Shown here one piece after another: positions 10,142 through 16,147 of a DNA stretch of 33,825 bases. Position 1 is the first letter of the stretch. Each line of letters starts with the position of its first letter. The notes beneath the pieces were generated by a model, which made no database searches, was not told where the DNA came from, and was given only the letters and a program-made list of their open reading frames with translations. A program made the translations under genes and the position numbers. The stretch lies in IMG/VR virus record IMGVR_UViG_2713896907_000008, positions 1-33,825 of that record; one strand, written 5' to 3'. Source of the stretch: a virus (Duplodnaviria > Heunggongvirae > Uroviricota > Caudoviricetes).

Positions 10142-10708
10142 TCAGGGAGATTCATTGCTCTTATTTGCCGGAAATTTTCGATAAATGGTAGAAACGCCTA
10201 CATCAAAAATCAGTGCAATACGCTGTCTTGATTCTCCGGCCTTGAGTAAACGCCCAATCTGTGCCCACTGTTCGCTGGTCAACTTAGGACGGCGTCCACC
10301 TACTCTGCCTTTGGCACAAGCTGCAGCCAGCCCTGCCCTGGTACGTTCAACTATCAGTTCGCGTTCCATTTCAGCCAGGGCACCCATGACATGAAAAAAG
10401 AAACGGCCCATTGGGGTACTGGTATCAATACTGTCAGTCAGACTTCGGAAATTCACGCCGCGCTGGCGCAACTCTTCTATCAGCGTAACAAGATGCCGCA
10501 TACTGCGTCCCAACCTGTCCAGCTTCCAGACAACCAGCGTGTCTCCTGCCGATAGTGTCCTGAGTAGTTTTTTCAGCCCCGGTCTGTCGGACTTAGTGCC
10601 ACTGATTTTGTCCTCAAAAATCCGCTCACATCCCGCGCAGTTCAGTGCATTACGTTGCAAATCGGTGTTCTGGTCATTTGTTGACACGCGTACATAGCCA
10701 ATAAGCAT
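10142..10708 (-). CDS. serine DNA invertase (Gin/Pin/Cin/Hin family)
   Basis: MLIGYVRVSTNDQNTDLQRNAL ... SLTDSIDTSTPMGRFFFHVMGALAEMERELI is near-identical in its motifs to Mu Gin as I recall it. Start set at the ATG with an AGGGGA ribosome-binding site; the ORF track begins earlier at 10825. Confidence 0.9.
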   Translation of the reverse strand: MLIGYVRVSTNDQNTDLQRNALNCAGCERIFEDKISGTKSDRPGLKKLLRTLSAGDTLVVWKLDRLGRSMRHLVTLIEELRQRGVNFRSLTDSIDTSTPMGRFFFHVMGALAEMERELIVERTRAGLAAACAKGRVGGRRPKLTSEQWAQIGRLLKAGESRQRIALIFDVGVSTIYRKFPANKSNESP

Positions 10709-10735
10709 GATCAATCCCCTGAATAAAAACCGGGG

Positions 10736-11170
10736 ATGATGCCAGTTAGCCATTATCTCTGCATTTTCATAAACGTTGGTTTGGGAGAAGCGGCAAAACG
10801 GAATATCGGTGCTGGAGCCAATCAAGTCCCCGACATGTCCTTTTTTACATCAGCAAAGGGTGATAACGGATACTTTTCCTTACCGGACGGCACTATTGTG
10901 CAATATGGAAAAGCCACAACGATAAGAAATAATGAAATTAGCCTGGTAACTTTGCCATTTTCCTTTCCCACAAAGTTCTCTCAGGTACTGATAACCCATG
11001 ATGATGCCGCAACTACAAATGCAGTTGCTTTTGGCGCCGCCACTCCAAAAACTGTTTCAACATTTCAGGTTGTCGTGCAGAAACTAGATTTTAATACCGC
11101 CACTGGAGCTGTCACATTACGAACCACTGCTTCACCGTGCTACTTCCGTTATATCGCAATCGGGAGCTAA
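10736..11170 (+). CDS. alternative tail-fibre C-terminal segment, silent in this orientation
   Basis: No independent start context; shares GLGEAAK at the crossover site with the expressed fibre gene H, then diverges. Confidence 0.6.
   Translation: MMPVSHYLCIFINVGLGEAAKRNIGAGANQVPDMSFFTSAKGDNGYFSLPDGTIVQYGKATTIRNNEISLVTLPFSFPTKFSQVLITHDDAATTNAVAFGAATPKTVSTFQVVVQKLDFNTATGAVTLRTTASPCYFRYIAIGS
10764..10789. repeat. invertase crossover site, left (hix/gix-like, 12-2-12)
   Basis: TTTTCATAAACG TT GGTTTGGGAGAA; 23 bp (10776-10798) is a perfect inverted copy of 12137-12159. Confidence 0.7.
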
Positions 11171-11174
11171 TTTT

Positions 11175-11399
11175 ATGCAAAACAAATACAGTCCATCTAT
11201 GAATACGTTCTTTATGGCTGAATTTATGCGTCGTTACGAACAAGCTGGTACATTGCCTGATGATGCAATAGAGATACCCGATGAAGTATTTAAAGAATAC
11301 ACAGGGGAACCACCGGACGGAATGATGAGGGTTGCGGGTAGTGATGGTCTACCCGCATGGGCAGAAATTATTTACACTCAGGAACCATCGGCCAGATGA
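11175..11399 (+). CDS. alternative tail-fibre assembly chaperone, short (74 aa)
   Basis: N-terminal similarity to the 151-aa chaperone on the opposite strand (…GSDGLPAWAEI… versus …GDDGLPCWVDL…), but stops after 74 aa. Confidence 0.5.
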   Translation: MQNKYSPSMNTFFMAEFMRRYEQAGTLPDDAIEIPDEVFKEYTGEPPDGMMRVAGSDGLPAWAEIIYTQEPSAR

Positions 11400-11823
11400 T
11401 ATCAGGAGCACTGGAGGTATCAATCAGTTCCAGTGCGTCCAGATAATCCAGCCACAGATTATATTGCGCCAGTTCCTCACCTTTCAGACGCCCGATTGCT
11501 GCTTTGCCGGGCCACTGCTTGCTATTCATATAATCGTTGGCCTGGTCAATTCTCGACTGCTTTTCTGAGTCAGCCACTGCAAGTTGTTCTTCATGCGTAG
11601 GTGGCGGAAGATCTACCCAGCAAGGCAACCCATCATCACCAATGCTCCGCACTTTACCTTCGGGAGCTTCTCCCATGAAAACCAGCGCATCGGCAGCATT
11701 TATATTGATGCCGTCTGACGGCCATGTGCCAGCAGTTAAATAATCATCTTGTAGTGCTACAAGATAAAAAGCATTTTCAGCCGGGCTGAATACATAGTCG
11801 ACCATTAATATCCCACTCCCCAT
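11368..11823 (-). CDS. G: tail-fibre assembly protein G
   Basis: 151-aa ORF immediately after H, inside the invertible segment. Confidence 0.8.
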   Translation of the reverse strand: MGSGILMVDYVFSPAENAFYLVALQDDYLTAGTWPSDGININAADALVFMGEAPEGKVRSIGDDGLPCWVDLPPPTHEEQLAVADSEKQSRIDQANDYMNSKQWPGKAAIGRLKGEELAQYNLWLDYLDALELIDTSSAPDIIWPMVPECK

Positions 11824-13208
11824 ACTGCCACTGTTGAATTAGATTTCGTATATGCGCAAGCGGCTTTGAATTTGACCCGGTCAACAATCGCTGCGCTAAC
11901 AAAAGGAGCTCCATTAGTCGCGTAGATCACAGAATTGACCAGCGAAGGATTGATGGAAAGGCAAGCATTAGGAAAGGCAACCGGCCATGAGTCATCAACA
12001 ACGACCATATTACCGTCGGTAGATTGCGGCACTGATACCATCTTCCACTGAAGCAGTGCTGTTCGTTGTACTCCACCAATTAATACTGGAATAGTGATGT
12101 TACCTGCACTGCTGGCCAATGCTGTTGCAGCAGGCATTTTTGCCGCTTCTCCCAAACCAAGGTATGTGAGAAGACCAGCTACATCCTTTCCACTCAAATT
12201 AGTCAGCGTATTGTCCAGCGGTTGTTTACCTGCCAGTGCATTAAGCATTGTCGTGGCAAAGTTCGGGTCATTCCCCAGCGCCGCCGCCAGTTCGTTCAGT
12301 GTATCCAGTGCCGCAGGTGCAGAACCCACCATTGCCGCAATCGCCGATTTCACAAAAGCCGTAGTGGCAATCTGTGTATTGTTGACCGACTGCGCCGCCG
12401 TGGGGGCTGTTGGCGTTCCGGTGAGTGCCGGACTCGACAGTGGCGCTTTCAGTGCCAGCGCATTGTTAATGGTGGTACTGAATTTCGGATCATTGTTAAT
12501 GGCTACGGCTATTTCTTTCAGCGTGTCCAGCGTGGCTGGAGCACCATTAATAAGAGCCGTCAGTGCCGCCTGAACAAACGCGGTGGTCGCAACCTGCGTG
12601 GTGTTATTCCCCGCCGCTGGCGTTGGCGCTTTGGGGGTTCCGGTAAACGTCGGACTTTCTTTGGGTGCATACTGTGAATGCGGGTCCGGTGCGGCAAGAT
12701 GTTTTGCCATCAGGTCATCCACGTACACCTTCAGCTCCAGTGCCTTGTCATCCACATACTTGCGGGTTGCCAGCACTACGGCAGGGTCGATTTTCAGGGT
12801 GATATTGTCCGTGCTGCTGGTAATCAACACCATACGCACGGTCTGGGTACGCCCGCTGCCTTCAGCCAGTTGCGGCTTATAGCTTTCCGGGCAGTTGCCC
12901 ACGGCAATCAATGCCCCGGACTCATCAAACAGGCCCACTTCACGTATCCACCAACCGCCCTCGTTTTCAGGGATCACCTGTTCAGCAATAATCTGGCTGC
13001 TGTTCTGCGGGTCGATATAGAGCATATTCAGCGCAGCCCGGCGTTTCTCATTTACTAATGCTGTCTGCTTTGCGTTCGGCGTTGGCAATGTTCCGCCGCC
13101 ATCGCCGACCGCCATATGGGTAATTTTTAAAGGCACACCGAGCGCGGCGGCGCTGGCAAGTTTCGCCGCGCCAATATCCGTCAGCAGGGTATAAAATTTT
13201 GTGCTCAT
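11805..13208 (-). CDS. H: tail fibre protein H; the last ~118 codons lie inside the invertible segment
   Basis: 467-aa ORF with two copies of a fibre repeat (TTAFV…AP..LDTL.E.A.A..NDP.F.TT..NALA.K.PL); crossover site at 12147-12172. Confidence 0.85.
   Translation of the reverse strand: MSTKFYTLLTDIGAAKLASAAALGVPLKITHMAVGDGGGTLPTPNAKQTALVNEKRRAALNMLYIDPQNSSQIIAEQVIPENEGGWWIREVGLFDESGALIAVGNCPESYKPQLAEGSGRTQTVRMVLITSSTDNITLKIDPAVVLATRKYVDDKALELKVYVDDLMAKHLAAPDPHSQYAPKESPTFTGTPKAPTPAAGNNTTQVATTAFVQAALTALINGAPATLDTLKEIAVAINNDPKFSTTINNALALKAPLSSPALTGTPTAPTAAQSVNNTQIATTAFVKSAIAAMVGSAPAALDTLNELAAALGNDPNFATTMLNALAGKQPLDNTLTNLSGKDVAGLLTYLGLGEAAKMPAATALASSAGNITIPVLIGGVQRTALLQWKMVSVPQSTDGNMVVVDDSWPVAFPNACLSINPSLVNSVIYATNGAPFVSAAIVDRVKFKAACAYTKSNSTVAVWGVGY
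12147..12172. repeat. invertase crossover site, right (inside H)
   Basis: TTCTCCCAAACC AA GGTATGTGAGAA, inverted relative to the site at 10764-10789. Confidence 0.7.
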
Positions 13209-15632: not shown

Positions 15633-15678
15633 AGGGAAAGGTTGCCATCAGGGGAAGAAAGGCGGCAGTGCTGCAACT

Positions 15679-15696
15679 TGTATCAGTGCTGATACA
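15679..15696. promoter_or_regulatory. TGT-N12-ACA dyad, candidate late promoter element for the V-W-J-I-H-G operon
   Basis: TGTATCAGTGCTGATACA, a near-perfect palindrome between S and V, 47 bp upstream of the V start. Confidence 0.5.
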
Positions 15697-15700
15697 AAGA

Positions 15701-16147
15701 TCACCCCGCCAGCCATTGCAGAATCATGTCGCGGGTCATTGCCTCAACATCATCATTTACACCCAGAAGGCGGCGTTCTGCGTAACGGACCTCAGGTCCT
15801 TTGCTACTGACGCGATCGCGCAAGCCGTAATGGTGAACACGGGCAATGCGCTGCACCTTACCTTCAAACTGCACGCTGGCAGAGTCGGCGCTGGCGGCAG
15901 TTTTCAGGTATTTTGTGGTGCGAAGTTTTGTAAACATCTGCCGTTTGATGCGGCCTTTTTTACTGCGTGCTGTTACCCGTCGCGGTTCATAGCTGCTGCC
16001 GTCAGGGTTGCGCTGCATCCTGATGTTCTGCTGCTGTGTCCGGCGCAGTTCCTGCGCCAGCTGGCGCATCATGCGGCTTCTGGCGGCTGGCTCCAGATTC
16101 GCCAGCAAGGCACTCAGCCAGTCGTCCACTTTCTGCAGTTCAGCCAC
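15701..16147 (-). CDS. S: tail completion protein S
   Basis: 148-aa basic ORF, P2 order. Confidence 0.75.
   Translation of the reverse strand: MAELQKVDDWLSALLANLEPAARSRMMRQLAQELRRTQQQNIRMQRNPDGSSYEPRRVTARSKKGRIKRQMFTKLRTTKYLKTAASADSASVQFEGKVQRIARVHHYGLRDRVSSKGPEVRYAERRLLGVNDDVEAMTRDMILQWLAG

Follow-up and report, generated by a model that had tools for sequence, protein, structure and literature searches.

A Pin/Gin-type invertible tail-fibre segment in a P2-like prophage, with a short Tfa chaperone in its alternative arm

When one arm of an invertible tail-fibre segment carries a chaperone gene of only 74 amino acids (aa), has that arm decayed, or is the short gene the proper partner of its fibre tip? 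The question is raised by a 33,825-nucleotide stretch of DNA, the whole of which we call the window, which corresponds to positions 1 to 33,825 of IMG/VR virus record IMGVR_UViG_2713896907_000008 and holds a P2-like prophage. Between the late genes G and FI lies a gene for a serine DNA invertase, next to a 1,385-bp segment that bears two alternative ends for the fibre gene H. An earlier note, made from the sequence alone, had described a Gin/Pin-type invertase with an invertible segment whose alternative arm is truncated. We consider it likely that the locus is a working Pin/Gin-type switch in the G-to-FI hotspot with both arms complete, and that the 74-aa protein, a conserved short Tfa, is the natural partner of the alternative tip, here termed tip B.

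The ends of the segment are marked by an inverted repeat whose arms (10764-10798 and 12138-12172) are 35 nt long and 89% complementary, the first 23 nt being perfectly identical. Within the arms lie two 26-bp crossover sites of 12-2-12 architecture, in inverted orientation and both with the central dinucleotide AA. The invertase-proximal site (10764-10789, core 10776-10777) reads TTCTCCCAAACC-AA-CGTTTATGAAAA on the minus strand, and the site inside H (12147-12172, core 12159-12160) reads TTCTCCCAAACC-AA-GGTATGTGAGAA on the plus strand. The H-internal site spans codons L350-G351 onward (LGLGEAAK), with its core in codon L350 just before GLGEAAK, where the earlier note had placed it; re-reading the sequence bore out every detail of its description of the two sites. 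The inner half-site plus core (14 nt) occurs exactly twice in the 33.8-kb window. With two mismatches allowed, 0.33 chance matches to this 14-mer are expected, and two were reached in 4 of 100 shuffled sequences. A 26-mer consensus with up to three mismatches gave one match in the window and none in 100 shuffles. Consensus and half-site searches of the window detected no third crossover site, which would have indicated a shufflon-type system. Both sites fit the gix pattern of phage Mu. The proximal one aligns with Mu gixR, the spacing to the invertase start being ~67-68 bp in both phages, and matches the site beside pinE in the e14 element of Escherichia coli K-12 at 26 of 26 positions.

The gene beside the proximal site (10142-10708, minus strand) is intact and encodes a 188-aa serine DNA invertase of the Pin/Gin family. 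Pfam recognises Resolvase (2.2e-52) and HTH_7 (1.2e-15) domains, and the protein aligns over its full length with the Mu Gin structures 3UJ3 and 4M6F at 7e-92. As in other small serine recombinases, the catalytic domain lies at the N-terminus (Ser9; serine motif VRVSTNDQ) and a helix-turn-helix domain at the C-terminus. Identity is 98% to the invertase of Peduoviridae phage Cartapus, 86% to e14 PinE and 75% to Mu Gin, in agreement with the assignment originally given to it. The 5' region of the gene aligns with Mu gin, and by homology inversion would need Fis together with an enhancer in this part of the gene; a Fis-dependent enhancer may lie there. Fis sites are too degenerate to be called from sequence. 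Between the crossover site and the invertase start, a consensus scan picked out a terminator-like hairpin followed by a T-rich run (10728-10747, minus strand), which might shield the invertase from late-operon read-through.

Between the cores, the segment (10776-12160) carries alternative fibre C-termini, each with its own chaperone gene behind it, in convergent arrangement. As sequenced, H occupies 11805-13208 on the minus strand and encodes 467 aa. Its constant part, residues 1-350 (12161-13208), matches the Pfam Phage_tail_fib N-terminal domain (4.3e-65) and shares 94-98% identity with H from relatives. Residues 351-467 (11805-12158, minus strand) constitute tip A, which is now fused to H and shows a faint match to Gp53-like_C (8.8e-4). 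The chaperone of tip A is the Tfa protein G (11368-11805, minus strand; Caudo_TAP, 1.9e-29), which is in the expressed orientation and measures 145 aa if it begins at the start codon that its RefSeq homologues use. The figure of 151 aa that had been set against the 74 aa of the other chaperone is the length of the longest open reading frame (ORF); the 74 aa stand. On the plus strand lie tip B, silent here (130 codons, 10778-11170 within ORF 10736-11170; Gp53-like_C, 1.9e-11), and the 74-aa protein, which we call mini-Tfa (11175-11399). Both plus-strand ORFs are promoterless, and a consensus promoter scan of the segment returned six hits where 3.5 were expected, no better than shuffled sequence. 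Sequence searches of the PDB gave no match to G at E up to 1 and a chance-level match to tip B (E = 0.064).

The 3' ends of G and mini-Tfa overlap by 32 nt on opposite strands (11368-11399). A tail-to-tail overlap of 23-32 nt was always seen between convergent chaperone genes, in the window as well as in loci L001 (3211-3239), L002 (2920-2948), L005 (5194-5225) and L010 (5194-5216). In pairs of full-length chaperones, a single stretch of DNA codes for a protein end ...APDIEWPTPPAVQAR-stop on one strand and ...APDVIWPELPEA-stop on the other, and this compact overlap is conserved.

Flipping the segment in silico between the two cores exchanges H residues 351-467 (117 aa) for 130 aa from the other arm and yields an in-frame H of 480 aa. 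The same 480-aa H is called in the E. coli genome GPEC1405 and in three prophage loci (L017, L023 and L025). The proposal that a 1.38-kb segment swaps the fibre C-terminus together with its chaperone therefore survives scrutiny. Mechanistically, the 188-aa invertase would bind the two 26-bp sites, cut at the central AA/TT and rotate the 1,385-bp segment. In the orientation sequenced, the late V operon would make H(1-350)-tip A (467 aa) with the 145-aa G, and after a flip it would make H(1-350)-tip B (480 aa, Gp53-like_C) with the 74-aa chaperone. The two tips presumably recognise different receptors.

The switch belongs squarely to the Din family (Gin, Pin, Cin and Hin): of the five features that define this family, four were tested and found. 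Its layout is that of the Mu G segment (Gin, S/U and S'/U'), a resemblance already pointed out in the earlier note: gene order, the site-to-invertase spacing and the 12-2-12 gix pattern agree. The Mu segment, however, is ~3 kb long and both U and U' are full-length (~175 aa), whereas the segment here measures 1.385 kb and one arm has a chaperone consisting of the N-domain only. The P segment of e14 (stfP/tfaP, tfaE/stfE, pinE) shares the gene order, in which the constant part of the fibre is followed by a tip with its Tfa, by the convergent Tfa' and tip' and by the invertase, with overlapping Tfa 3' ends. It differs in belonging to a lambdoid remnant rather than to a P2-like (Peduoviridae) prophage, in its fibre tips, and in that both of its chaperones are full-length (137 and 200 aa). 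Modules in Escherichia phage Cartapus, an E. coli 4314 prophage, Klebsiella phage KP12 and the P2-like prophages of enteropathogenic E. coli (EPEC) E2348/69 have the same backbone, the same G-FI position, the invertase and an H site at the GLGE codons. Their alternative arms, in contrast, carry full-length Tfas of 131-200 aa, and their homology to the window breaks off where the cassette of tip B and mini-Tfa begins and ends (10791-11398). P2 itself has the order H, G, terminator, fun(Z), FI with no invertase, as had been stated; the rarity implied by that comparison did not hold up, since the module is annotated in phages Cartapus and KP12 as well as in numerous P2-like prophages of E. coli and Klebsiella, and its flipping has already been published. 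We found no description of the tip B and mini-Tfa cassette in the literature, and its one unusual property is the N-domain-only chaperone.

The distribution of the segment in other genomes argues for inversion by the invertase. Among 5,426 complete E. coli genomes, one (GPEC1405) contains the tip B and 74-aa cassette; there the whole segment is 99.7% identical to ours and inverted relative to flanks that are ~96-98% identical. In the assembly collection, 150 blocks index the exact 74-aa protein, and ten loci encoding it were examined. Four of these (L016, L019, L021 and L022) have the orientation of the window. The other six are flipped: L017, L023 and L025 in the same backbone, L024 in another P2-like backbone, and L018 and L020 in Mu-like prophages. 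Related P2-like prophages thus hold the 1,385-bp segment, 99.7-99.9% identical, in both orientations. Throughout, the inner half-sites and the core stay the same and the outer half-sites swap partner exactly at the 2-bp core, and an exchange at precisely this dinucleotide is the signature of a serine invertase.

Assemblies of short contigs are suggestive in the same respect. The Logan contig L026 (ERR6131491) consists of 1,385 bp equal to window 10776-12160, its two ends coinciding with the outer edges of the perfect 23-bp repeat, and in 63 of the 150 blocks the exact 74-aa protein occurs only on contigs below 2 kb. Logan assemblies use k = 31, at which a 23-bp repeat alone would not break a contig. 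Contigs bounded by the repeat fit a mix of both orientations in the reads, and the same pattern would arise in a sample where two backbones share the segment. Clonal cultures of EPEC E2348/69 show reproducible flipping of invertible loci in their P2-like prophages (PMC4272514), and a survey of P2 hotspots describes a DNA invertase with inversion of adjacent genes in the same locus, where invertases are frequent (bioRxiv 10.1101/2024.10.15.618418).

We then turn to the alternative arm itself. Mini-Tfa is 38% identical to residues 6-66 of G (BLASTP, E = 8e-15) and aligns to positions 4-60 of the 131 positions of Caudo_TAP (PF02413), ending ~8 residues after the N-domain; the Pfam score of the whole protein, 20.4, lies below the gathering cut-off of 22.1. 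It therefore possesses the N-terminal fibre-binding domain of Tfa proteins. Like Mu U, P2 G and lambda Tfa, to whose variable fibre-binding domain it is homologous, it is encoded directly downstream of a fibre gene; unlike them, it lacks the C-terminal helical domain. The model of Mu Tfa, as outlined in PMC9608196 after North et al. (2019), assigns fibre binding to the variable N-domain and trimerization to the C-domain. A GGGAG ribosome-binding sequence precedes the gene, and its ATG lies 4 nt past the tip B stop codon.

The length of the protein is conserved. All nine homologous protein clusters are 66-74 aa long and align with the window protein at 67-99% identity, so that the comparison does not support a one-off truncation. 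In pairwise comparisons over codons 1-63, the ratio of non-synonymous to synonymous substitution rates (dN/dS) is 0.03-0.16, a range like that of tip B (0.04-0.14) with similar dS values; both genes are under purifying selection. Homologues occur in three other tail backbones, four with that of the window, always directly behind a homologue of tip B. Two of those three backbones have an invertase and show the same tail-to-tail overlap with a full-length partner Tfa, and one of them was seen in both orientations. The third is the P2-like locus L009 of Klebsiella aerogenes, where a 72-aa gene, the only chaperone gene found beside the fibre, comes after a 340-aa fibre with tip B at its end; no crossover site was detected in the part scanned (3.5-8 kb) and no invertase among the called genes. 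At this locus (GCA_031067645.1, 3974-10219), the genes U, T, E, FII and FI come directly after those for the fibre and the 72-aa chaperone and lie on the opposite strand, an order unlike that of P2.

A profile search of 1.84 billion representatives returned one short representative of the family (75 aa), most of the other relatives being proteins of 135-150 aa that align through ~65 N-terminal residues, the N-domain region of annotated Tfas. From this result, the short form most likely had a single origin, in a loss of the C-domain, and has been retained from then on. Among the best 150 profile representatives, 23 are 56-87 aa long; nearly all begin with Met and many end soon after GLPxW (for example P0012, P0020, P0029, P0041, P0055, P0058 and P0062). 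They may be additional, independent N-domain-only Tfas or else genes cut short at contig ends, and since the two cases cannot be distinguished we have not used them as evidence. The homology of the 4314 prophage ending at window 11399, together with the atypical C-termini of both convergent Tfas, at first suggested a fresh deletion product. We rejected this reading because diverged homologues keep both the length and the tail-to-tail overlap and dN/dS is low. Judged by these sequence comparisons, mini-Tfa is most likely a conserved short Tfa under selection rather than a broken gene, and a natural mini-chaperone dedicated to the Gp53-like_C tip B. It may also be enough to fold tip B.

Several observations weigh against a working switch with two complete arms, and some of them concern this strain. 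The tape-measure gene T is split into ORFs of 648 and 385 aa (window 4745-7818) by a 4-bp deletion near 5971/5972, where a GCCAGCCAGCCAGG run has lost one GCCA unit. In GPEC1405 and other relatives T is intact at 1,025 aa. Contig BBVY01000005.1 of GCA_001514965.1 (L021), the source contig, agrees with the window at 100% identity over 12.2 kb and has the same split. The prophage may therefore be tail-defective, or the split may be an error of the draft assembly. If the deletion is real, the prophage cannot build tails, and the switch would flip without consequence, as in e14; it may thus be phenotypically silent in this host. Activity of the switch in this particular strain is presumed. Moreover, synonymous divergence of the invertase gene from Mu gin is saturated and not reduced in the 5' 60 codons (0.79 against 0.81 elsewhere), which makes a test for enhancer constraint by this measure uninformative. 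It is possible, if somewhat doubtful, that the switch is a fossil in this prophage, such that inversion, even if ongoing as in e14, affects no infectious particle. Nevertheless, the invertase, both sites and all four ORFs of the segment are intact, and close relatives with an intact T have the switch in both orientations. Such a fossil would bear on the biological consequence of the element, not on its identity.

The remaining points against a complete second arm concern mini-Tfa and its fibre. The conserved C-terminal helical domain is missing from the 74-aa protein, and its AlphaFold model, built from a nine-sequence alignment, has low confidence (predicted local distance difference test score, pLDDT, of 63) and is too poor for a fold search. 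A DNA search found no deposited phage genome with tip B and mini-Tfa, so no virion is documented with this arm; the best phage protein matches to mini-Tfa are 45% identical N-domains of full-length Tfas. The missing domain and the absence of the arm from isolated phages would fit a degenerate alternative arm, the 74-aa gene being a deletion remnant and the flipped fibre misfolding into an off or defective state. The protein indeed stops right after the N-domain, most profile relatives are longer, and the summary of the Mu Tfa model cited above gives trimerization to just the domain that is missing. We regard decay as unlikely, however. A remnant would not be expected to hold its length in homologues down to 67% identity at a dN/dS equal to that of its fibre tip, nor to recur in four tail backbones, in one of which (L009) no other chaperone gene was found beside the fixed fibre. 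In addition, the orientation that expresses tip B is at least as common in assemblies as the other (six of the ten loci, plus GPEC1405). The description of the arm as truncated is thus correct in that the Tfa C-domain is absent, and incorrect in so far as it implies decay or a single event; the question of function that it raises is a fair one.

The comparison of backbones also shows how the segment travels. In the second P2-like backbone (L024, segment at 5597-6986) it is 99.9% identical to that of the window while the flanks are 81-87% identical, and in the Mu-like prophages the whole segment is 97.3-99.9% identical while their invertase is only 53% identical; overall, the invertases serving the segment in other backbones are 53-85% identical to that of the window. 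The segment clearly moves horizontally, since its identity stays at 99.7-99.9% while the backbones around it are only 81-97% identical or, in the Mu-like case, unrelated, and the cassette appears to be traded between phages at the invertase sites, as homology ends at the crossover cores. That the orientations themselves stem from cassette replacement or homologous recombination between prophages is nonetheless very improbable, given exchange points exactly on the 2-bp core in every case, a perfect repeat of only 23 bp that is a poor RecA substrate, and the flipping of homologous loci in clonal culture (PMC4272514). Returning to a working switch with two complete arms, we lean slightly towards the further view that tip B and the 74-aa gene make up a self-sufficient receptor-binding cassette, in which an N-domain-only Tfa folds the tip without a C-domain, and which moves as a unit between P2-like and Mu-like phages bounded by the crossover cores.

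The surroundings of the locus are those of a P2-like phage. On the minus strand of the window, the ORFs correspond to the late genes W, J, I, H and G, followed by FI, FII, E and T, in P2 order, and the wider Peduoviridae order (V W J I H G ... FI FII E T U D) is present with P2-type proteins. Pfam matches in locus L021 include P2 GpR, Tail_S, Baseplate_J, Tail_P2_I, sheath, tube, GpE and tape-measure families. Homologous prophages carry matching late-gene annotation, and the gene order agrees with that of P2 itself. At one end of the prophage, a 561-aa ORF (936-2621, plus strand) has the length and position of ybjL of GPEC1405, to which the region aligns; the prophage adjoins ybjL, ogr and D being the prophage genes at that end, and its chromosomal site is that of the GPEC1405 prophage. 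Between V and S (15634-15750), this prophage has only 116 bp. At the same spot, relatives have a DUF6216 gene (268 aa; GPEC1405, L017, L019 and L023) or an unannotated 429-aa gene (L022 and L025). The V-S intergenic spot is a hotspot for cargo genes, of which this prophage has none there.

As a switch the locus adds nothing new, since Pin/Gin-type host-range switches are textbook systems and have already been reported in P2-like prophages. How phages trade whole invertible cassettes is illustrated by this segment, which unrelated backbones share at 99.9% identity and beyond whose cores homology stops. The apparently truncated chaperone, a conserved short form under selection, offers a natural test of the two-domain model of Tfa, and mini-Tfa with tip B could give a minimal fibre-plus-chaperone unit for engineering the host range of phages and tailocins. 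If the mini-chaperone is indeed self-sufficient, it would show that the C-domain of Tfa is dispensable for at least one class of fibre.

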